Part shown: piece by piece, positions 1-25,564 of the stretch | Layout of the letters: each line of letters begins with the position of its first letter | Position numbering within the stretch: the stretch's first letter is position 1 | DNA from: a virus | Lineage: Duplodnaviria; Heunggongvirae; Uroviricota; Caudoviricetes | Virus record (IMG/VR): IMGVR_UViG_2917860307_000003 | Coordinates: 1-25,564 of that record | Reading direction: 5' to 3' (one strand) | Length of the DNA stretch: 25,564 nt | Program-made: the position numbers and the translations under genes | The notes under the pieces: model-generated | Seen by the model: the letters and a program-made list of their open reading frames with translations, nothing else | What the model was told of the DNA's origin: nothing | Database searches by the model: none

Positions 1-1053
1 ATGAAAAATACTGTAAAAATAAACAGTGCTGATTTAATCAACGCTGATTGCCTGCATTTTATTCAGTCCCTGCCTGATGACTCCATTGATCTGATTGTTA
101 CCGATCCGCCGTACTTCAAAGTGAAGCCCAACGGCTGGGACAATCAGTGGAAAGGGGACGAAGATTACCTGAAGTGGCTGGACCACTGTCTGGCCCAGTT
201 CTGGCGGGTGCTGAAACCTGCCGGAAGCCTTTACCTGTTCTGTGGACATCGCCTGGCATCTGATATCGAGATCATGATGCGTGAACGTTTCAACGTGCTT
301 AACCATATCATCTGGGCGAAGCCGTCCGGACGATGGAACGGGTGTAATAAAGAAAGTCTGCGCGCATATTTTCCCGCCACAGAGCGTGTTCTGTTTGCTG
401 AACATTACCAGGGGCCATATTGCGGCAAAAGTGACGGCTATGCGGCAAAAGAAAGGGAACTCAAACAGCACATAATGGCACCGCTGATTTCGTATTTCAG
501 GGATGCTCGTGCCGAACTGGGTATAACGGCAAAACAGATTGCCGAAGCCACTGGTAAGAAAAATATGGTTTCCCACTGGTTTGGTGCCAGTCAGTGGCAG
601 TTGCCGAATGAGGCTGACTACCGGAAGTTGCAGGCACTGTTTTCCCGTATAGCGGCAGAGAAGTTTCAGGAACAACAACTGGAACAACCACACCACCAGC
701 TGGTGGCATCTTATGATTCACTGAATCGCAAATATTCTGAATTGCTGGATGAGTTTAAAACTCTCCGGCGCTATTTCTCCGTATCAGTTTCCGTGCCTTA
801 TACCGACGTCTGGACGCATAAACCCGTTCAGTTCTACCCGGGTAAACATCCGTGTGAGAAGCCTGCGGATATGCTCCGGCAAATAATCAATGCCAGTAGT
901 CGACCAGGCGATCTGGTTGCTGATTTCTTTATGGGATCCGGTTCCACAATAAAAGCAGCAATGGCGCTGGGGCGTCGGGCGTTAGGTGTTGAGCTTGAGT
1001 CAGATCGGTTTAACCAGACGGTGAAAGAGGTAAGTGAACTGGTGGGGAAATAA
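1..1053 (+). CDS. DNA N6-adenine methyltransferase, beta-class (orphan, phage-encoded)
   Basis: 350-aa ORF starting at the window's first base; DPPY motif IV near the N-terminus (IVTDPPYF) and FxGxG motif I near the C-terminus (DFFMGSGST), the motif order of beta-class amino-MTases; no adjacent endonuclease. Confidence 0.85.
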   Translation: MKNTVKINSADLINADCLHFIQSLPDDSIDLIVTDPPYFKVKPNGWDNQWKGDEDYLKWLDHCLAQFWRVLKPAGSLYLFCGHRLASDIEIMMRERFNVLNHIIWAKPSGRWNGCNKESLRAYFPATERVLFAEHYQGPYCGKSDGYAAKERELKQHIMAPLISYFRDARAELGITAKQIAEATGKKNMVSHWFGASQWQLPNEADYRKLQALFSRIAAEKFQEQQLEQPHHQLVASYDSLNRKYSELLDEFKTLRRYFSVSVSVPYTDVWTHKPVQFYPGKHPCEKPADMLRQIINASSRPGDLVADFFMGSGSTIKAAMALGRRALGVELESDRFNQTVKEVSELVGK

Positions 1054-1060
1054 TTCTGGT

Positions 1061-1082
1061 GGCCACGTTGCCTGGCCTTTTT
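1061..1082 (+). terminator. Weak candidate intrinsic terminator downstream of the methyltransferase
   Basis: 5-bp stem GGCCA/TGGCC (1061-1065 / 1073-1077) with 7-nt loop, followed by TTTTT. Confidence 0.3.
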
Positions 1083-1130
1083 ATTTCCAACACAGCACCC
1101 GCAAATAATCGCGAGGTGAGAGATGACGAA

Positions 1131-1467
1131 ATGCCTCATAACCCAAATACCTGGCCGGACTGGCTGGAGTTGTTCCAGAGCTGGTGGCGTGGAGATACGC
1201 CGCTGGGCGCAGTGATTATGTCGATTGTTATGGCTGGTTTGCGTATTGCCTATTTTGGTGGTGGTGGCGGCTGGAAACGAAAATCACTCGAAATTTTTGC
1301 TCTGTGGCGCTCTGACGCTGACATTTGCATCCGCGCTTGAGTATGTCGGATGGCCTAAATCGCTTTCTGTTGCCATTGGTGGTGGGGTGGGGCTGATCGG
1401 GGTCGATGCAATTCGTGGGGCTGCAATGAGAGTAATCGGTAACAAGTTTGGTGGCTCTAAGGAGTAA
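1131..1467 (+). pseudogene. S: Lambda S-like class I holin, apparently frameshifted (N-terminal part in one frame from ATG 1131, C-terminal part in the next frame ending 1467)
   Basis: Frame-3 translation MPHNPNTWPDWLELFQSWWRGDTPLGAVIMSIVMAGLRIAYFGGGG resembles the lambda S N-terminus/TM1; the frame-1 translation (…FASALEYVGW…VGLIGVDAIRGAAMRVIGNKFGG) resembles the lambda S C-terminus; the frame-1 ORF has no ATG (TTG only) and is preceded by an in-frame stop; frames switch within 1257-1290. Confidence 0.5.
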
Positions 1468-1470
1468 TTT

Positions 1471-1947
1471 ATGCAGGCACTAAATTCCCAGCGTAAAGCT
1501 TTCCTCGATATGGTGGCATGGTCAGAAGGAACGGATAACGGGCGACAACCGACACGTAACCACGGTTATGACGTTATTGTTGGTGGTGAACTGTTTACTG
1601 ATTACTCCGATCACCCTCACAAACTTGTCACGCTAAACCCGAAACTTAAATCAACAGCTGCCGGACGTTATCAGCTTCTTTCCCGTTGGTGGGATGCTTA
1701 CCGTAAACAGCTTGGTTTGAAAGACTTCTCCCCCAAAAGCCAGGACGCTGTGGCATTGCAGCAGATTAAAGAGCGTGGCGCTTTACCGATGATTGATCGC
1801 GGTGATATCCGTCAGGCAATCGACCGTTGCAGCAATATCTGGGCTTCACTGCCGGGCGCTGGTTACGGTCAGTATGAACATAAAATCGGTGACCTGATTG
1901 CCCGATTTAAAGAGGCTGGTGGGGTGGTAAATGAAGTTGAGCTATAA
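1471..1947 (+). CDS. R: Endolysin, lambda R-type lytic transglycosylase
   Basis: 158-aa ORF; very close to the lambda R sequence as I recall it (NSQRKAFLDMVAWSEGTDNGRQ…HGYDVIVGGELFTDYSDHP); AAGGAG RBS 7 nt upstream of ATG. Confidence 0.9.
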   Translation: MQALNSQRKAFLDMVAWSEGTDNGRQPTRNHGYDVIVGGELFTDYSDHPHKLVTLNPKLKSTAAGRYQLLSRWWDAYRKQLGLKDFSPKSQDAVALQQIKERGALPMIDRGDIRQAIDRCSNIWASLPGAGYGQYEHKIGDLIARFKEAGGVVNEVEL

Positions 1948-2398
1948 GTTGGTTATCGCTGCTTTCTTCGTTACTGTCATTGGTTCTTTTATCTTTTCAG
2001 CGAATCATTACCACAATAAAGCCATTGAATACAAAAAGCAGCGCGACGAAAACGCAATGGCATTAGATTCGGCTATGGCGACGCTCTCTGATATGCAGAA
2101 GCGTCAACGTGACGTAGCAGAACTTGACGCCAGATATACAAAGGAGCTTGCTGATGCTAACGCGACTATCGAAAGTCTCCGTGCTGATGTTTCTGCTGGC
2201 CGTAAGTGGCTGCGCGTCAAAGCAGTCTGTCCCGACATGCATAAAATCACCGCCGCCTCCGGCGTGGATGATGGCTCCAGCCCCAGACTTACTGACACCG
2301 CTCAACGGGATTATTTCGTTCTCAGAGAGCGCATTGAAACCATAACTAACCAATTGAATGGCCTGCAAGAGTATGTGAGATCACAGTGTTCATATTAG
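1931..2398 (+). CDS. Rz: Rz i-spanin
   Basis: 155-aa ORF with N-terminal TM segment then coiled-coil region; clear similarity to lambda Rz (QRDVAELDARYTKELADA…KAVC…TASGVDD…PRLTDTAQRDYF); start overlaps the end of R. Confidence 0.85.
   Translation: MKLSYKLVIAAFFVTVIGSFIFSANHYHNKAIEYKKQRDENAMALDSAMATLSDMQKRQRDVAELDARYTKELADANATIESLRADVSAGRKWLRVKAVCPDMHKITAASGVDDGSSPRLTDTAQRDYFVLRERIETITNQLNGLQEYVRSQCSY
2154..2345 (+). CDS. Rz1: Rz1 o-spanin lipoprotein, embedded in the +1 frame of Rz
   Basis: ATG 2154 preceded by AAGGAG; signal peptide with lipobox LAVSGC; proline-rich mature part (CASKQSV…PPPPAW…TPLNGIIS) matching lambda Rz1. Confidence 0.7.
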   Translation: MLTRLSKVSVLMFLLAVSGCASKQSVPTCIKSPPPPAWMMAPAPDLLTPLNGIISFSESALKP

Positions 2399-2436
2399 AA
2401 AAGTCTTACCATAAGATTTTTGTATATGGATGCATT

Positions 2437-2811
2437 ATGTCTCAATACGCGCGCGCTGCTTTAATTGCTTATTATTTGGTTGCTGATAATTCATTATCCC
2501 CTCGTGATGCATGGGAGGCTGCAGTCGCTGAGGTTACAGAAAGCGAATCGGCAAGAAAGAAAGGATGCCCAAGGGCAACGTTTCTCGCTCTGACGGATAG
2601 CGGTTATCTGAAGAATGTAAAACCACAGCATGGGGAGAGAAAGGTCGGTAAGTTGTACCAAAGGGCAATTGAAGTTGCGAATCTGATTCTTGATTTGCCC
2701 GGAATCAGCAAAGCTGAGTTAGTTGATAAAACTTGCTATAAAGACAGGCAAGGGTCTTATGACATTGTTCTGACACTCGCTCAGTACGGATTTCTTCAAC
2801 GTCCTCAGTAA
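2437..2811 (+). CDS. Hypothetical protein, 124 aa (accessory gene; function unknown)
   Basis: ORF in a lower-GC stretch between the lysis cassette and packaging genes; start uncertain (ATG 2437 has no obvious RBS; alternative GTG 2386 overlaps the Rz stop); followed by a strong terminator-like hairpin. Confidence 0.5.
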   Translation: MSQYARAALIAYYLVADNSLSPRDAWEAAVAEVTESESARKKGCPRATFLALTDSGYLKNVKPQHGERKVGKLYQRAIEVANLILDLPGISKAELVDKTCYKDRQGSYDIVLTLAQYGFLQRPQ

Positions 2812-2829
2812 GATATCAAGTGATTTATG

Positions 2830-2853
2830 GCCTCGCTTTTAGCGGGGCTTTTT
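2830..2853 (+). terminator. Intrinsic terminator downstream of the 124-aa accessory ORF
   Basis: 7-bp stem GCCTCGC/GCGGGGC (one G-U pair in RNA), 5-nt loop TTTTA, then TTTTT. Confidence 0.55.
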
Positions 2854-3002
2854 CACATCTGAATTTCACTGCGCACCCCACGCGCACATTATCACCCGAG
2901 CCTTTCAGAAAGTTGAGCCTGAGAACTGCCGTATATGGTGGCGACCATCTCGGGGCGGCTTTTCTGTGGGGCAGGCTCAATTTTCTAAAAGGTAATAGCG
3001 CT

Positions 3003-3500
3003 ATGAAAGCAATCACGCTTTTTAATACACCGATCCGTGTTGATGAATCAGGAATGATCTGCCTCACTGACATGTGGAAAGCTAGTGGTAAAAGTGAATC
3101 TGAATCGCCGTACCACTACCTGCGAAACAAGCAGACCAAAGAGTTCTTGGCTGAGCTGGAGAAAAACCACGAATCTGTGGTTTTTACGGAACGCGGTGTG
3201 CACGGTGGAACTTATGGAGGAAAGTTCGTTGCTTATGATTACGCAGCATGGCTAAACCCTGAATTTAAATATGCAGCCTATAAAGTCCTCGATGACTACT
3301 TCACCGGAGAGCTTCAGCATCGCAGCAGCTTAAGTGCACAGCTCAATATGAAGTGTCACGAGTTTGATCAGAAGAAAGATATGGCGAGCTTTTGCGGGCA
3401 GGGACTGGCTGCTTGGCGTTACACCAAGCCAGTTCTGATGGCTGAAATTAGTAACCTGGCTACCCAGCTGCAGCTCACAATACCCGGGCTGCATTCATAA
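3003..3500 (+). CDS. KilA-N (APSES-type) DNA-binding domain protein
   Basis: 165-aa ORF from ATG 3003; N-terminal pattern (ICLTDMWKASGKS…YLRNKQTKEFLAEL…GGTYGGKFVAYDYAAWLNPEF) matches the KilA-N domain as I recall it; the track's upstream extension from 2820 looks non-coding. Confidence 0.55.
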   Translation: MKAITLFNTPIRVDESGMICLTDMWKASGKSESESPYHYLRNKQTKEFLAELEKNHESVVFTERGVHGGTYGGKFVAYDYAAWLNPEFKYAAYKVLDDYFTGELQHRSSLSAQLNMKCHEFDQKKDMASFCGQGLAAWRYTKPVLMAEISNLATQLQLTIPGLHS

Positions 3501-3550
3501 GCGCTCGAATCAATATGCCTACCACACCACTCGTGTGCGGATGAACAGTG

Positions 3551-3679
3551 TCAGCTCATGTAAGACAGCAGATGGTTCAACCATATGTGGAAGTGTTCCA
3601 ATATCCAATTTGCGCAAAGCTTTATTATCATCTTAAGTAAGATATTGATTATCAGATTGATTAAATAATCTTTTTTCAT
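3551..3679 (-). CDS. Candidate small hydrophobic peptide (42 aa) in an AT-rich island; speculative
   Basis: Minus-strand ATG at 3679 with GAGGG 4 nt upstream; my translation is MKKDYLINLIINILLKMIIKLCANWILEHFHIWLNHLLSYMS; below the 60-aa cutoff of the supplied track. Confidence 0.25.
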   Translation of the reverse strand: MKKDYLINLIINILLKMIIKLCANWILEHFHIWLNHLLSYMS

Positions 3680-3773
3680 AATCCCTCTTCAATATTCAGT
3701 TTTAATGGAGGGAAGAATGCGGAGTTTGTGATTTGCGTTGTAGACAGAGAAGAGTTAAACGAGTCGATTTATC

Positions 3774-4124
3774 ATGCCTGCCTTAATCCCCAGAGCCTGC
3801 CGTGTTCGTGGCTGCCGCCATACCACCACAGACCCGTCAGGCTACTGCGAAAGCCACAAAAGCGAAGGCTGGAAGCAATACAAGCCAGGACAATCCCGTC
3901 ATCAGCGCGGCTACGGTTCGAAGTGGGACAGTATCCGCGCGCGTGTCCTGAAGCGTGACAAAGGCCTGTGTCAGTTATGTCTGCGTTCTGGTGTGGTGCG
4001 TGAGGCGAAAACTGTTGACCACATCATCCCTAAAGCGCATGGCGGCACTGATGCTGACAGTAATCTGCAGAGTCTGTGCTGGCCGTGCCATAAGGCGAAG
4101 ACGGCCCGTGAACGGTTAAAGTGA
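3774..4124 (+). CDS. HNH endonuclease (phage packaging-associated)
   Basis: 116-aa ORF with Cys-rich N-terminus and HNH core (VDHIIPKAHGGTDADSNLQSLCWPCHKAKT); sits immediately upstream of the terminase genes, as in HK97-like cos phages. Confidence 0.85.
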   Translation: MPALIPRACRVRGCRHTTTDPSGYCESHKSEGWKQYKPGQSRHQRGYGSKWDSIRARVLKRDKGLCQLCLRSGVVREAKTVDHIIPKAHGGTDADSNLQSLCWPCHKAKTARERLK

Positions 4125-4140
4125 TAATAATTCTCAACTG

Positions 4141-4215
4141 TCTGAGGGGAGGGGCGGGTCAAATCCCTGTGACCTGACGTCTTCCGGACTGCCCGCCCCA
4201 TCGTTTTTTTATACC
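4141..4215. other. Structured GC-rich element between HNH and terS; candidate cos/packaging site or terminator
   Basis: Perfect inverted repeat GGGGCGGG (4151-4158) / CCCGCCCC (4192-4199) enclosing an inner GGTCA/TGACC pair and a GACGTC palindrome, followed by a 7-T run (4204-4210). Confidence 0.35.
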
Positions 4216-4249
4216 CGCGAAAAATGAAATTTAACCAGGAGTGCCGCAT

Positions 4250-4633
4250 ATGGCTGGAACGGCGGGGCGTTCCGGGCGTCGCCCCAAGCCAACGGCGCGC
4301 AAGGCGCTGGCCGGAAACCCCGGCAAGCGAGCCCTGAACAAAGATGAACCCGTTTTTACGCCCATCAAAGGTGTTGAGCCACCGGAGTGGTTCGCTGAAG
4401 AAGAGCTCCCTCTCGCCACGATCATGTGGCAACTGACAACCAAAGAACTCTGCGGTCAGGGCCTGCTGTGCGTGACTGACCTCGCAGTGCTTGAGCGGTG
4501 GTGCGTAGCCTATGAGTTCTGGCGACGTGCCGTGAAAAATATTGCCAGACAGGGCAACACCATCACCGGTGCAATGGGCGGCATGGTCAAAAATCCGGAG
4601 CTGACCGCCAAAAAGAACAGGAGTCCGAGATGA
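4250..4633 (+). CDS. Terminase small subunit (P27/HK97 gp1-like), N-terminal frame; probably continues by a -1 shift to 4743
   Basis: ATG 4250 preceded by AGGAG; Arg/Lys-rich N-terminus (MAGTAGRSGRRPKPTARKALAGNPGKRAL) typical of this family; stops at 4631-4633 while a clean 42-codon continuation exists in the -1 frame. Confidence 0.8.
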   Translation: MAGTAGRSGRRPKPTARKALAGNPGKRALNKDEPVFTPIKGVEPPEWFAEEELPLATIMWQLTTKELCGQGLLCVTDLAVLERWCVAYEFWRRAVKNIARQGNTITGAMGGMVKNPELTAKKNRSPR

Positions 4634-4743: not shown

Positions 4744-6416
4744 GCCGGAAATCTTACCCCAACGTAAATGCTGCAAATCAGTATGCCCGGGATGTCGTGC
4801 GCGGAAAGATTGTTGCCTGCCAGTTTGTGATTCAGGCCTGCCAGCGCCATCTTGATGACCTGATGGCGGAAAAAAGTAAGTCGTTTCGTTACCGCTTCGA
4901 CAAGGACCTGGCTGAACGGGCCGCCAAATTTATTCAGCTGTTGCCGCACACCAAGGGTGAGTGGGCATTTAAACGGATGCCCATCACGCTGGAGCCGTGG
5001 CAGCTATTTGTGATCTGCTGTGCGTTTGGCTGGGTCAATAAAGGCACCCGGTTGCGCCGCTTCCGGGAGGTGTATACCGAAATTCCCCGTAAGAACGGTA
5101 AATCGGCAATCTCTGCCGGTGTTGCCCTGTATTGTTTTGCCTGTGATAACGAGTTTGGCGCGGAAGTGTATTCCGGTGCCACGACAGAGAAACAGGCGTG
5201 GGAAGTCTTTCGTCCGGCGCGACTGATGTGTAAACGCACACCAATGCTGACGGAAGCGTTCGGGATTGAGGTTAACGCCTCAAACATGAACCGTCCGGAG
5301 GATGGCGCGCGGTTTGAACCGCTGATCGGTAACCCCGGTGATGGTTCATCACCCCACTGTGCGGTGGTGGATGAATATCACGAGCACGCCACCGATGCGC
5401 TTTACACCACGATGCTTACCGGGATGGGGGCGCGACGTCAGCCACTGATGTGGGCCATCACCACTGCCGGGTACAACATTGAGGGGCCGTGCTACGACAA
5501 GCGGCGGGAAGTCATCGAGATGCTCAACGGCTCGGTGCCCAACGATGAACTGTTCGGGATCATCTATACCGTTGATGAAGGTGACGACTGGACCGACCCG
5601 CAGGTGCTGGAAAAAGCCAATCCAAATATTGGCGTGTCGGTTTATCGCGAATTTTTGTTAAGTCAGCAGCAGCGTGCGAAAAATAACGCCCGTCTGGCAA
5701 ACGTCTTTAAAACAAAACACCTCAATATCTGGGTGTCGGCGCGTTCGGCGTATTTCAACCTGGTGAGCTGGCAGAGCTGTGAGGATAAATCACTGACTCT
5801 TGAGCAATTCGAGGGGCAGCCGTGCATTCTGGCCTTTGACCTGGCGCGTAAACTGGATATGAACAGCATGGCGCGACTTTATACCCGCGAGATTGACGGT
5901 AAAACGCATTACTACAGTGTGGCCCCGCGTTTCTGGGTACCGTATGACACGGTGTACAGCGTCGAGAAAAATGAAGATCGCCGGACAGCCGAACGCTTTC
6001 AGAAATGGGTGGAAATGGGCGTCCTGACCGTTACCGATGGTGCTGAGGTGGATTATCGCTACATCCTCGAAGAGGCCAAAGCGGCGAACAAAATCAGCCC
6101 GGTCAGCGAGTCACCCATCGACCCCTTCGGGGCGACCGGGCTCTCACATGACCTTGCTGATGAAGACCTGAACCCCATCACTATCATTCAGAACTACACC
6201 AACATGTCCGACCCGATGAAAGAGCTGGAAGCGGCAATTGAATCGGGGCGCTTTCATCATGATGGCAATCCCATCATGACCTGGTGTATCGGCAACGTGG
6301 TCGGCAAAACCATTCCGGGTAACGATGATGTGGTGAAACCCGTCAAAGAGCAGGCGGAAAACAAAATCGATGGTGCAGTTGCGCTGATTATGGCGGTTGG
6401 CAGAGCCATGCTGTAA
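4740..6416 (+). CDS. Terminase large subunit
   Basis: 558-aa ORF directly downstream of the small terminase; size and position typical of an HK97-family large terminase. Confidence 0.85.
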
Positions 6417-21625: not shown

Positions 21626-22396
21626 ATGCATCGTATAGACACGAAAACCGCGCAGAAGGATAAGTTCGGCGCGGGTAAGAACGGTTTTACCCGTGGTAAC
21701 CCCCAGACCGGCACGCCTGCCACCGATCTGGATGATGACTACTTTGACATGTTGCAGGAGGAGCTTTGCAGCGTGGTGGAGGCATCCGGTGCCAGCCTGG
21801 AGAAGGGGCGAAACGACCAGTTGCTTACCGCGCTTCGTGCGTTGCTGTTAAGCCGCAAGAATCCGTTTGGCGATATCAAATCGGATGGCACTGTGCAAAC
21901 GGCTCTCGAAAACCTTGGTTTGGGAGAAGGTTCGGCATTACCCGTTGGTGTGCCTGTTCCGTGGCCTTCCGCCACTCCGCCAACAGGCTGGCTGAAATGT
22001 AATGGTGCTACCTTTGATAAGGTGAAATATCCCAACCTTGCCAAAGCATACCCTTCAGGGAAACTGCCTGATTTACGTGGTGAGTTTATTCGTGGCTGGG
22101 ATGACGGACGTGGCATTGATGCAGGACGTGCTTTATTGAGCATTCAGGCTGGGATGCTGGAGAAGCACCGCCATATTGTTGTTGCCAACGATGGCTATGA
22201 TTCAGGTGAAGAATGGGAGCTGGCTACAATTTTTCAGAACACATACACACAAGGTCGGGGGCTTGACGCCGTTTTTACAGGGGGAACCCTTATTCCGGCT
22301 CCGAGGTTGCATTCACGAGGAAGTATTGGTAACACGGGCGGGAACGAAACACGACCGCGCAATATTGCATTTAACTTTATTGTGAGGGCTGCATAA
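21626..22396 (+). CDS. Tail fibre protein in current orientation: constant N-terminus fused to variable C-terminus Sv
   Basis: 256-aa ORF; a recombination site lies inside it at 21905-21930, so the first ~100 aa are constant and the rest is on the invertible segment. Confidence 0.75.
21905..21930. repeat. Left inversion crossover site (pix/gix-like) inside the tail fibre gene
   Basis: CTCGAAAACCTTGGTTTGGGAGAAGG; its reverse complement shares 15 contiguous identical bases (CTTCTCCCAAACCAA) with the site at 23751-23777. Confidence 0.75.
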
Positions 22397-22998
22397 TGAA
22401 TCACGCGGTATTAAATAACGAACTTATTGCCGTGCAGGAAGGAAACATTATCGTTTACAACTATGACAGTGAGACGCGGGAATATATTTCTGCATCAACT
22501 GAATATCTTGCTGTGGGTGTCGGTATTCCGGCATATTCCTGTTTAGACGCTCCAGGTACACATAAGGCTGGTTATACAATTTGCCGTTCTGTGGATTTAA
22601 AATCATGGGAATATGTGTCAGACCATCGTGGTGAAATTGTCTATAGCACCGAAACAGGGGAATCAAAAGAAATCAAAACTCCGGGTGATTACCCTGAAAA
22701 TACAACCACTATCGCCCCGTCAACGCCATACGATAAATGGGATGGTGAGAAATGGGTGACAGATACTGAGGAGCTACATCACGTCGCAGTAGAAACGGCA
22801 GAAACACAGCGTCAGTCAATGATTGAAACTGCAATGGCTTCCATTAGTCTGATTCAACTGAAATTGCAGGCCGGGCGGAAGCTGATGCAGGCAGAGACCA
22901 CCCGACTTAACACTGTGCTGGATTACATTGACGCGGTGACGGCAACAGATACCAGCACAGCGCCGGATGTTATCTGGCCTGAACTGCCGGAGGCGTAG
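22396..22998 (+). CDS. Tail fibre assembly protein (Tfa/U, expressed orientation)
   Basis: 200-aa ORF overlapping the fibre stop; C-terminus (…TSTAPDVIWPELPEA) matches the C-terminus of the convergent paralogue. Confidence 0.75.
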   Translation: MNHAVLNNELIAVQEGNIIVYNYDSETREYISASTEYLAVGVGIPAYSCLDAPGTHKAGYTICRSVDLKSWEYVSDHRGEIVYSTETGESKEIKTPGDYPENTTTIAPSTPYDKWDGEKWVTDTEELHHVAVETAETQRQSMIETAMASISLIQLKLQAGRKLMQAETTRLNTVLDYIDAVTATDTSTAPDVIWPELPEA

Positions 22999-23410
22999 GC
23001 CATTCAATATCTGGAGCACTGGAAATATCGACCACTTCCAGTGCGTCCAGATAATCCAGCCACAAATTATATTGCGCCAGTTCCTCACCTTTCAGACGAC
23101 CAATAGCTGCTTTACCAGGCCATTGCCTGCTGTTCATGTGTTCGTTGGCAGTATCTATGCGCTTCTGACGCTCGTATTCTGCCATTTTTATCAGTTCTTC
23201 AGGTTCCAGTGGCGGAATATTACCCCATACGGGATAACCATCATCATCCGCAATCCTCATTTTTCCCTCTGGTGGCTTCTGAAATGCAGAAAAAGTTTCT
23301 TCATCAACCTCCACGCCTTTTTCTGGCCATAACCCCACGGATTCATAATGTAATTTCAAAGCCAACGGATAGAAGGCGTTAGTTTTTGCATCATAAATAT
23401 ATTTGTTCAT
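22970..23410 (-). CDS. Alternative tail fibre assembly protein (Tfa'/U', silent orientation)
   Basis: 146-aa ORF convergent with tfa; shares the C-terminal motif (…SSAPDIEWPTPPA). Confidence 0.7.
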   Translation of the reverse strand: MNKYIYDAKTNAFYPLALKLHYESVGLWPEKGVEVDEETFSAFQKPPEGKMRIADDDGYPVWGNIPPLEPEELIKMAEYERQKRIDTANEHMNSRQWPGKAAIGRLKGEELAQYNLWLDYLDALEVVDISSAPDIEWPTPPAVQAR

Positions 23411-23412
23411 TT

Positions 23413-23777
23413 TTATTTCCCTATTGCAATCCAGTTAGCGCCAGCACCCGTTCCGCCAGTACGAGAACTCATTAAATAAAATGCAAGTAGTCCGCCTCCT
23501 GCCGGAGTTGTCGCAAAGGCAGGGCAATCTGTCGCACCGTTAACTGCACTGTCAAAAGACGTGGCAATACGATAACCAGATGTAAAAGGAATCGGGAAGT
23601 TTACAGTTGTTGGATAGCCGATTGGCCCTGCAATACTGACGCCAAACTGTATGATTGTACCATCCGGAAATTTCATCCAGCCTGGCCCCGACGTGAAGCT
23701 AGCCATATCCGGGATCTGATTTACCCCGGTTCCAACCTCCCGTTTTGCCGCTTCTCCCAAACCAACGTTTATGAAAA
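23413..23777 (-). CDS. Alternative tail fibre C-terminal cassette (Sv'), without its own start; fused to the constant N-terminus after inversion
   Basis: Minus-strand frame reads through the right recombination site encoding …GLGE…, in register with the same GLGE encoded at the left site in the fibre gene. Confidence 0.65.
23751..23777. repeat. Right inversion crossover site (pix/gix-like)
   Basis: CTTCTCCCAAACCAACGTTTATGAAAA, inverted relative to the site at 21905-21930. Confidence 0.75.
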
Positions 23778-23831
23778 TACAGAAATAACGAGCAAATGGC
23801 ATCATTCCTGCTTTTGTCAGGGAGATCTACC

Positions 23832-24386
23832 ATGCTTATTGGCTATGTACGTGTGTCAACAAATGACCAGAACACAGATCTACAACGTAATGCGCTGAAC
23901 TGTGCAGGATGCGAGCTGATTTTTGAAGACAAGATAAGCGGTACAAAGTCCGAAAGGCCGGGACTGAAAAAACTGCTCAGGACATTATCGGCAGGTGACA
24001 CTCTGGTTGTCTGGAAGCTGGATCGGCTGGGGCGTAGTATGCGGCATCTGGTCATTCTGGTTGAGGAGTTGCGCGAACGTGGCGTTAATTTTCGCAGCCT
24101 GACGGATGCTATTGATACCAGCACACCGATGGGGCGTTTTTTCTTTCATGTGATGGGTGCCCTGGCTGAAATGGAACGAGAACTGATTGTTGAACGAACA
24201 AAAGCTGGACTGGAAGCTGCTCGCGCACAGGGACGAATTGGGGGACGTCGTCCCAAACTTACACCAGAACAATGGGCGCAGGCCGGGCGATTAATTGCAT
24301 CAGGCGTTCCTCGCCAGAAGGTGGCGATCATCTATGATGTTGGTATATCGACACTGTATAAGAAGTTTCCGGTCGGAGATAAATGA
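23832..24386 (+). CDS. pin: Serine DNA invertase (Pin/Gin/Hin family)
   Basis: 184-aa ORF from ATG 23832; N-terminus MLIGYVRVSTNDQNTDLQRNAL with catalytic-serine context and C-terminal HTH; close to E. coli e14 Pin as I recall it. Confidence 0.9.
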   Translation: MLIGYVRVSTNDQNTDLQRNALNCAGCELIFEDKISGTKSERPGLKKLLRTLSAGDTLVVWKLDRLGRSMRHLVILVEELRERGVNFRSLTDAIDTSTPMGRFFFHVMGALAEMERELIVERTKAGLEAARAQGRIGGRRPKLTPEQWAQAGRLIASGVPRQKVAIIYDVGISTLYKKFPVGDK

Positions 24387-24676: not shown

Positions 24677-25564
24677 TCAGGAAAATTTACGGGAGCCTAT
24701 GACGCAGAGGATGACACCGAATGTAATCAGTATCATCAGCGGACTAATGGCTTCATGCAGCAGTGTGGCTGACAGACCCAATCCAAAGAAAGGCTGTAAT
24801 AGCTGTAGCTGACCGACAGCTGCAATCCCGCCAGTAGCCAGTCCCTTATACCAGAATATAAAGCCAATCAGCATGCTGAATAGCGAGACGTAGGCCAGAG
24901 CGAACCAGGCCGATGTAGAAATCCCGCCAAAAGTATCGGGTATTGTCATCAATGAGGCCAACACCATAAAAGGCAGGGAAATAATCAGTGCCCAGCTAAT
25001 GACTTGCCATCCCCCAAGCACTCGGGTCAGTTTTGCGCCTTCTGCATACCCAAGTCCACAAATAACCACAGCGGCAAGCATAAGAAGATCGCCTGTCAGG
25101 GAGACTGTATCACTTTGCATGAAGGCAAACCCTATCACCAGTAGGCTACCCAGAACAGAAAAAATCCAGAACGCTATTGTTGGTCGTTCACCACCTCGTA
25201 GTACCCCAAAAATCGCTGTACTAAGCGGCAGTAGCCCTAAATAAACGATCGAGTGGGCCGCATCAATATGCTTTAGCGCCATCGCTGTAAGTAAGGGAAA
25301 GCCAACAATGACGCCCACAGACACAATAATTAGCGGTGCGAACTGAGCGGCTTGTGGGCGTTTTTCACGAAAGTAATAAACAAGAATCACCGCCAGCGTA
25401 CCGGCAATGGATGCCCGGAGGAAAGTCAGAAAAAACGGATCCATATCAAGCACGGCAACACGTGTGGCCGGTAGGGAACCACTAAAAATGATGACGCCCA
25501 ACAGACCGTTGACCCAACCAGATACTGAACTTGCCGCCATTTTATCTGCCACTGAATTCTCCAT
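24677..25564 (-). CDS. EamA/DMT-family membrane transporter (probably host-encoded); start codon at the window edge
   Basis: 295-aa polytopic membrane protein with about 10 hydrophobic segments; the ATG is the last three bases of the window; convergent with the prophage. Confidence 0.6.
   Translation of the reverse strand: MENSVADKMAASSVSGWVNGLLGVIIFSGSLPATRVAVLDMDPFFLTFLRASIAGTLAVILVYYFREKRPQAAQFAPLIIVSVGVIVGFPLLTAMALKHIDAAHSIVYLGLLPLSTAIFGVLRGGERPTIAFWIFSVLGSLLVIGFAFMQSDTVSLTGDLLMLAAVVICGLGYAEGAKLTRVLGGWQVISWALIISLPFMVLASLMTIPDTFGGISTSAWFALAYVSLFSMLIGFIFWYKGLATGGIAAVGQLQLLQPFFGLGLSATLLHEAISPLMILITFGVILCVIGSRKFS

Follow-up and report, generated by a model that had tools for sequence, protein, structure and literature searches.

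Two genes at the lysis-packaging junction

The DNA analysed here, called the window throughout, is a 25,564-nucleotide stretch (IMG/VR virus record IMGVR_UViG_2917860307_000003, positions 1 to 25,564) and belongs to the late region of an E. coli prophage of lambdoid, SfI/SfV-like type. Two genes lie in it between the lysis genes Rz/Rz1 and the HNH-terminase block: gene A, encoding a DUF6979 family protein, and gene B, encoding a KilA-N protein. An intrinsic-terminator hairpin (T1) and a structured leader stand between them, and these two genes and the leader are the subject of this report. As listed in Table 1, both open reading frames (ORFs) are present where an original prediction, made from the sequence letters, had set them. 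RefSeq annotates the same two ORFs as DUF6979 family protein and KilA-N domain-containing protein in a 99.5% identical prophage of E. coli KS-NP019. Both genes are accessory, as had been supposed, each being missing from closely related prophages. The junction had also been called a recurrent site for cargo, and in a synteny comparison the contents of the slot did differ among related prophages. Between Rz and the packaging genes we found DUF6979 with KilA-N, DUF6979 with a 67-aa ORF, DUF6979 with a 60-aa ORF on the minus strand, KilA-N alone, and KilA-N with a hypothetical gene and Gp49.

Table 1. Features of the window at and around the lysis-packaging junction.
Feature	Position	Strand	Basis or remark
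DNA methyltransferase gene	1-1053		
Holin, GH24 endolysin and Rz/Rz1 lysis genes	1225-2398		
Rz spanin gene, last of the lysis genes	1931-2398	+	Pfam Phage_lysis, E 1.4e-42
Rz1, embedded in Rz	~2154-2345		lipobox LAVSGC read from the embedded ORF
Gene A, DUF6979 family protein, 124 aa	2437-2811	+	Pfam PF22399, phrog_5039
T1, intrinsic-terminator hairpin and T-run	2829-2853	+	stem 2829-2849, then TTTTT
H2, small leader hairpin UGCGC...GCGCA	2870-2886	+	predicted in every variant
Long bipartite leader hairpin	2900-2993	+	inverted repeat, fold z-scores, covariation
Gene B, KilA-N + ORF11CD3 (Bro-network) protein, 165 aa	3003-3500	+	Pfam
AT-rich spacer between gene B and the HNH gene, 37.7% GC	3501-3773		rare
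HNH endonuclease gene, start of the packaging block	3774-4124	+	Pfam HNH, E 1e-16

The original prediction had treated genes A and B as one cassette, which is contradicted by their independent assortment. In a set of 5426 complete E. coli genomes, gene A was found in 248 and gene B in 417, while the full adjacent arrangement was found in only 5; these five match at 98.7-99.5% identity, and the two genes are co-oriented in them as in the window. DUF6979 accompanied this KilA-N gene (92-100% amino acid identity) in 1 of 80 viral contigs, which is the twin of the window. In strain AVS0655 genes A and B sit in different prophages. The synteny comparison, which had been proposed as a check, likewise found that co-occurrence is rare among related prophages and that various other genes fill the slot. 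Pairwise homology fell into two blocks, a DUF6979 block from window position 2003/2085 to 2869 and a KilA-N block at about 2830-3490, and the two overlapped only at T1. Judged from these sequences, the DUF6979/KilA-N pairing is a rare recombinant.

T1 itself is a predicted canonical intrinsic terminator, as had been proposed: a GC-rich hairpin with a 9-bp stem (free energy −14.4 kcal/mol, z = −4.2) followed by a U-run. A simple terminator scanner missed it because extension of the stem consumes one T. It had been taken for the terminator of gene A's own transcription unit. The same stem (GCCTCGC/GCGGGGC) opens the KilA-N/rha module in phi80, P22 and HK620-type phages, which argues against that assignment, and it stands directly after Rz in phi80, P22 and the loci with KilA-N alone. 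Its pairs covary in four loci (L019, L021, L043 and L046). On the sequence comparison T1 is a common junction, where the DUF6979 module has its 3′ end and the rha-locus module its 5′ end.

A structured leader upstream of gene B

A conserved structured leader between T1 and gene B was missed in the original prediction. The piece upstream of gene B consists of T1, the small hairpin H2 and a long bipartite hairpin; the leader measures ~150 nt and the long hairpin ~94 nt. In the latter a ~20-bp lower stem leads, through an internal loop of 6 nt on the 3′ side, to an upper stem-loop whose apex, UGGCGA, is conserved. Gene B has its Shine-Dalgarno (SD) sequence, AAAGG (2988-2992), 10 nt before the ATG, where it forms part of the paired base of the long hairpin. 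Fold z-scores of the long hairpin were −3.5 to −3.95.

The same architecture of the long hairpin was found in 39 of 39 unique sequences, which fall into five or more sequence variants. Every variant family pairs the SD at the stem base, using different partners, CCUUU/AAAGG in the window and CCUGC/GUAGG in the Stx/P22-type. In H2, 12 of 36 sequences have U-A in place of a C-G pair, and RNAalifold detected double compensatory changes in the upper stems. The arms of the lower stem lie outside the search pattern used to collect the leader sequences. When they were compared in an ungapped register test, 91% of pairs were canonical, against 36-55% after a shift of 1-2 nt, and most positions showed double compensatory pair types.

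A covariance model built from six window-type sequences recovered all variants, with 93.7 bits for phi80 and 41.4 bits for P22. On the window it scored 125 bits on the plus strand and 28.6 bits on the minus strand. In the alignment to this model 91.5% of cells pair, compared with 75% after shuffling and 41-49% in slid registers, and 27 of the 35 pairs of the long hairpin change on both sides. The covariation score was 0.435 against 0.174 and was exceeded by none of 500 shuffles. The abundance of G-U pairs and the asymmetry of the model score between strands indicate an RNA of the sense strand. These sequence comparisons show that the leader forms an evolutionarily maintained ~94-nt sense-strand hairpin which pairs the SD of its gene. 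Rfam reported no relevant family in the window at gathering thresholds, nor any at E<=5 in 2380-3800.

At least 120 viral stretches matched a degenerate pattern made for the hairpin core. The core lies 36-41 nt before the ATG of at least nine different genes, in which Pfam recognised Phage_pRha, pRha with ORF11CD3, KilA-N (with or without ORF11CD3), ANT, HNH_3 (with or without AP2) and T5orf172/MUG113. Each of these types is a member or an associate of the Bro network, whose domains are shuffled (domain list in PMC10111431). One leader variant can precede different genes, one gene can follow different leader variants, and some contigs carry leader-gene units in tandem. When the hairpin alone was used in blastn, by which only the A and B variants are detected, at least 916 of the 5426 E. 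coli genomes were matched. No annotated feature lay under any of the hairpin matches listed. One match, at 93% identity, is in E. coli DH5alpha (NZ_CP026085.1, 1459084-1459185), and this copy presumably comes from the phi80 lacZdeltaM15 remnant; its presence in a laboratory strain would make the element convenient to study.

Tandem full copies of the leader, ~2 kb apart, were seen at 299-407 and 2318-2425 of locus L217 and at 2639-2747 and 4828-4936 of locus L242, each copy preceding a different gene (Rha-type, HNH_3-type). Elsewhere a second, shorter leader-like copy, scoring 34-44 bits with the covariance model, follows 1-2 kb downstream of the first. Examples are phi80 (L289, 4117-4208), L169 (8535-8625), L178 (4555-4659), L195 (1100-1204), L212 (3122-3213), L220 (807-909) and L272 (341-433). 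The second copy of phi80 ends exactly where the last gene before cosQ starts. Possibly the element serves more widely as the leader of accessory genes that close the late operon.

Other roles for parts of the leader were considered. A mini-ORF in the internal loop was rejected on inspection, the GUG or AUG not being kept in frame or length across variants. The inner hairpin is unlikely to be a second terminator because its U-tract reads UUUCCU in most variants. A search for a trans-acting partner RNA gave only chance-level complementarity between the leader and the window sequence.

The position of the leader connects gene B with the rha locus. In blastn the leader aligns at 83% identity with the sequence immediately preceding rha in phi80, whose record lists Rz/Rz1, a putative terminator and then rha, the last with the remark 'DNA synthesis inhibition in IHF- hosts'. 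The Stx/P22-type variant occupies the same place upstream of rha (orf201) in P22. A passage in PMC4936722, citing Mozola & Friedman 1985 and Henthorn & Friedman 1995, states that the rha product of the late operon harms lytic growth without IHF and that IHF regulates rha. The annotated starts of rha in phi80 (L289, 2593) and of rha/orf201 in P22 (L290, 776) fall inside the leader hairpin, and an ATG conserved across many phages (phi80 MNNPSVIPAF...) lies at least 36 nt downstream. For these reasons the annotated N-termini of both proteins are probably over-extended.

The gene products and the surrounding window

Gene A had been described as lacking any recognisable domain. Profile search changed this: residues 1-121 match positions 1-127 of the 127 in Pfam DUF6979 (PF22399) at 101.4 bits, the cut-off being 27, and the protein is a member of phrog_5039. 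DUF6979 is a Pfam family without an assigned function. Its dN/dS of 0.19-0.27 indicates purifying selection. In 6 loci the distance from the Rz stop codon to the start of the gene is exactly 38 nt; these loci comprise at least three packaging backbones (lambda-like, DUF1441-TerS and HNH/P27) and two types of lysis cassette. The 3′ half of Rz travels with the DUF6979 gene, and it is from within Rz (2003/2085) that the module matches other phages as far as 2869. A crude consensus scan of the plus strand at 1000-4400 detected no sigma-70-like promoter site. The proposal that gene A forms an independent transcription unit is not supported, given the fixed spacing after Rz, the negative outcome of this crude scan and the position of the gene upstream of the shared T1. 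The same three observations make gene A look like an extension of the lysis operon, as far as the sequence can tell, rather than a unit of its own.

The AF2 model of gene A (pLDDT 89, pTM 0.85) predicts an all-helical protein of seven helices. Its structure had no match in BFVD, and no PDB match was found by sequence. An exhaustive profile search collected 593 cluster representatives of DUF6979, nearly all of them stand-alone proteins of 120-140 aa. They come from Proteobacteria (including Enterobacteriaceae), Firmicutes, Paenibacillus, Acidobacteriota, Planctomycetota, Chloroflexota, Bacteroidota and Methanoregula, and most are chromosomal singletons beside housekeeping genes, without lysis genes. 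Ten longer DUF6979 proteins contained no second Pfam domain.

The family shares the motif S-x-S-S-R-x-K-G-C-P-[RK]-x-A-F-L. Gene A resembles the other members in keeping the motifs AW..A, S.S.R.KGCP[RK]..FL.L and QG.YD[IV]V..L. The enterobacterial phage clade is 25-49% identical to other members and differs from them in lacking the second conserved Cys (LCE replaced by LTD). It is also the only DUF6979 clade seen here that is linked to a lysis cassette.

Among 78 loci from diverse phyla DUF6979 had no conserved neighbour, with one weak excess of type I hsdM and methyltransferases. A type I hsdM gene lies within two genes of DUF6979 in 4 of the 78 loci, one of which (L100) is a DUF6979-hsdM-RhuM/Fic-hsdS operon. 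In Kosakonia DUF6979 is directly downstream of a phage N6/N4 methyltransferase gene, which brings the number to 5 of 78 (L100, L155, L167, L168 and L090). This proximity is well above chance for a random gene, yet it is a weak lead. PADLOC had no match for gene A, NCBIfam had none for either gene, and a literature search found no publication that mentions DUF6979. At a low-confidence guess, gene A encodes a small cytoplasmic helical protein which binds nucleic acid or protein and is made late in infection.

Gene B had been read as a KilA-N-type protein, and Pfam agrees. The KilA-N domain (PF04383) covers residues 7-101 at 61.7 bits, above the gathering cut-off of 23.8, and ORF11CD3 covers residues 109-161 at 49.9 bits (cut-off 25). 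An ORF11CD3 tail is also found on Phage_pRha alleles at the same locus. A passage in PMC8585504, citing Iyer et al. 2002, describes KilA-N as a sequence-specific DNA-binding domain; by analogy with this domain literature the product of gene B would bind DNA. Selection on gene B is very strongly purifying (dN/dS 0.04-0.10). It is 92-100% identical at the amino acid level in the 80 viral contigs, while the upstream Rz is only 39-73% identical. In these contigs the gene always begins ~210 nt after Rz and carries ~190 nt of upstream sequence along, and it stands right after Rz/Rz1 in 76 of the 80 contigs, as rha does in phi80 and P22.

The GC content of gene A (45.1%) is lower than that of the packaging and head genes (54-60%), as had been pointed out. 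It is not special in this, since gene B (47%) and the lysis genes (47-51%) are low too, and the GC step is for this reason placed at the HNH gene (~3774) and not at gene A. Downstream of the HNH gene follow P27-type TerS, TerL, portal, HK97-type capsid and contractile tail genes and an invertible tail-fibre segment. From 3785 on the sequence is again homologous to other HNH/TerS backbones, and the SfI genome stops just past the HNH gene.

Only 6 of the 5426 E. coli genomes have the spacer between gene B and the HNH gene, and no phage record has it. Within it lie two matches to the IHF consensus (3638-3662) and, on the minus strand, a hydrophobic 42-aa ORF (3551-3679) with a strong Shine-Dalgarno sequence (GAGGG), for which Pfam and PHROG gave no match. 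A terminator-like hairpin with a T-run (1058-1077) directly follows the methyltransferase gene, before the holin gene, and is one of several that late transcription must read through. The invertible tail-fibre segment spans 22396-24386. It includes a serine invertase gene (Resolvase + HTH_7) at 23796-24386, which adjoins alternative tail-fibre C-terminal and assembly genes that run in the opposite direction at 22970-23805. Beyond it, at the end of the window, the minus strand at 24677-25564 encodes an EamA-like membrane protein of 295 aa that weakly matches LAB_N; its gene may be cargo of the prophage or belong to the flanking host DNA. No tRNAs were found in the window.

Interpretation and comparison with known systems

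Taken as genes, A and B are ordinary, already-annotated accessory cargo in a known hypervariable slot, joined by recombination. As the explanation of the whole junction, we consider it likely that two unrelated single-gene accessory modules meet here in a rare SfI/SfV-like recombinant. One would be a DUF6979 gene joined to the 3′ end of the lysis operon, between Rz/Rz1 and the terminator, and the second the rha locus, composed of T1, an SD-pairing leader and an interchangeable gene. Both genes would then be transcribed only by Q-modified RNA polymerase from the late promoter. T1 would stop unmodified polymerase and so insulate gene B, whose expression would need late read-through, and the leader hairpin would keep its translation low or conditional. 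Release of translation could come from melting, from ribosome standby or from RNase III cleavage of the ~20-bp lower stem. The outcome would be a tight dosing of a potentially harmful DNA-binding protein, as Rha harms phage growth in IHF-deficient hosts.

Several points weigh against this explanation. Read-through of T1, late-only expression and translational repression are features that we infer. The promoter scan was crude, so a weak or activator-dependent promoter may precede gene A or gene B. The covariation alignment was fitted to the structure of the model, which the ungapped lower-stem test offsets in part, and the approximately five leader variants amount to few independent lineages. 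The IHF consensus is not enriched in the leader; of consensus matches 14 were observed against 17 expected, with one 1-mismatch site at 2814-2826, and for this reason the link to the IHF phenotype is positional, not mechanistic. The leader may also have been described already in Henthorn & Friedman 1995.

Four other explanations bear on parts of the evidence. That DUF6979 and KilA-N form a functional two-gene unit which moves and acts together, for example as effector and regulator or toxin and antidote, we regard as barely credible, and the distribution has largely refuted it. In the window and the five E. coli genomes with the full arrangement the genes do stand side by side in one orientation, but this compares with 248 and 417 genomes which have them separately and with a single joint occurrence among the 80 KilA-N contigs. 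Their homology blocks are separate, with the breakpoint at T1, and a strong terminator and a leader that would block translation stand between them. Nor has DUF6979 a conserved partner in the 78 diverse loci. A partial DUF6979 gene, followed by a leader and a different KilA-N gene, does occur in a degraded prophage of Salmonella enterica subsp. diarizonae. Position alone explains this case: DUF6979 inserts before T1, and any occupant of the rha locus then follows it. The prophage end in question (L089, 4450-7800) has a holin gene, a truncated endolysin gene, the partial DUF6979 gene, a 28-bit copy of the leader, a frameshifted KilA-N gene of another type and three further ORFs, which by eye resemble ArtB/ArtB/ArtA pertussis-like toxin subunits.

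It is also rather improbable that DUF6979 is no cargo at all and serves as a dedicated component of the lysis cassette, be it a regulator of lysis timing or an accessory of spanin or endolysin. In enterobacterial phages it does follow Rz/Rz1 directly at the fixed 38-nt spacing, falls in one homology block with the 3′ half of Rz and, on its sequence context, counts as co-transcribed with the lysis genes. However, only 248 of the 5426 E. coli genomes have it while related lysis cassettes occur in thousands; inspection revealed no signal peptide or membrane segment, and the 593 family representatives across phyla are mostly chromosomal singletons without lysis genes.

For gene B, a role as an anti-phage defence protein of the prophage, expressed in the lysogen and causing abortive infection as BstA does, would agree with its accessory slot and with a weak PADLOC match to the candidate system protein PDC-S22 (E 9e-10). 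BstA, however, has ~307 aa, with a KilA-N-like N-terminal domain and a conserved C-terminal domain (PMC8585504), whereas the 165-aa product of gene B has ORF11CD3 as its C-terminal half and lacks that domain. A gene behind a late-operon terminator, with its SD paired and no promoter detected, fits constitutive expression in the lysogen poorly, and Rha, ANT and homing-type nucleases can take the place of gene B at its locus. Such a defence role is unlikely in view of the absent C-terminal domain and of the expression context.

Less probable still is a leader with no RNA function, acting as a DNA-level linker for module exchange by homologous recombination or as a protein-binding inverted repeat. 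The leader does lie exactly at mosaic junctions, and its variants combine freely with the downstream genes; conserved boundary sequences in lambdoid phages were reportedly proposed in the HK620 genome paper. Yet the sequence diverges while the pairing stays, as seen in the double-changed pairs and in the drop in canonical pairing when the register is slid. Read from the opposite strand, which the model scores far lower, the many G-U pairs would become A-C mismatches, and the fixed distance to the start codon and the pairing of the SD in all variant families are further points against a DNA linker.

The rha locus can be seen as a conserved regulatory chassis, made of a terminator and an SD-sequestering leader, for interchangeable DNA-binding or nuclease genes. 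The leader is present in P22, phi80, HK620 and Stx phages, unannotated and missing from Rfam, and it offers a testable handle on the restraint of potentially harmful late genes and on the 30-year-old Rha/IHF observation. DUF6979 is a small protein with a confident model and no structural match, spread from enterobacterial phages to archaea. Two items merit further study: the covarying leader of the rha locus and the DUF6979 family, for which no structural match was found. A bolder proposal, which we offer tentatively and with somewhat less than even confidence, is that the ~150-nt leader is an undescribed, portable class of cis-regulatory RNA. It would gate the translation of potentially harmful Bro-network genes (Rha, KilA-N, ANT, HNH and T5orf172) in the late operons of P22, phi80, HK620, Stx and many further enterobacterial phages, and might be the missing cis element of the Rha/IHF phenotype. 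Under the same proposal DUF6979 would separately be a new helical fold with a role related to DNA modification, an idea that comes from its place beside type I hsdM or a phage methyltransferase gene in 5 of 78 loci.

Several known systems can be set beside this locus. Morons and other junction cargo, such as lambda bor, resemble genes A and B in their presence/absence polymorphism, their position after a terminator and their slightly lower GC content. They differ from morons in their setting: gene A is embedded in the lysis operon, and gene B is part of a locus that is structured and conserved, not a free-standing insertion. The crude consensus scan detected no promoter belonging to either gene.

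The P1 c4/icd/ant and Gifsy-1 IsrK-orf45-anrP loci, the nearest precedents in mechanism although their RNAs are different, appear to share their logic with gene B, an antirepressor-like gene behind a terminator whose mRNA is silenced by structure, as we suppose for gene B. In Gifsy-1 terminator read-through gives a translationally inactive mRNA of the antirepressor locus (PMC4825925). These loci lie after Q or in the immunity region, whereas gene B lies after Rz. Rfam found isrK, C4 and c4-a1b1 in Gifsy-1, which served as a positive control, and none of these in the window, and the leader model found nothing in Gifsy-1; homology to the IsrK/C4 leader was rejected on these grounds. The papers on anti-sRNA and Pas small RNAs made no mention of the present locus.

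Closer to gene B are hkbK of HK620 and the post-Rz kilA/KilA-N genes of Stx phages (1717, 2851, Stx2a/Stx1a), which are its orthologues (87-90% nucleotide and 92-96% amino acid identity). They agree with gene B in their position after Rz and in the leader family, but differ in having no DUF6979 gene upstream, other packaging modules downstream and no recorded function. Literature searches on hkbK and on KilA-N, Stx and morons yielded nothing useful.

The rha loci of phi80 and P22 share the layout of the gene B locus: a position after Rz/Rz1 in the late operon, the same terminator stem and the same structured leader. Their product, like that of gene B, is a small Bro-network protein of DNA-binding type, and some Rha alleles have the ORF11CD3 C-terminus. 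The window differs from both phages in the DUF6979 gene inserted between Rz and the terminator. The N-terminal domain of gene B differs from that of Rha, being KilA-N and not Phage_pRha, for which Pfam gave no match. Since the pRha domain is absent, we regard gene B as an alternative KilA-N allele at the rha locus rather than as a Rha protein.

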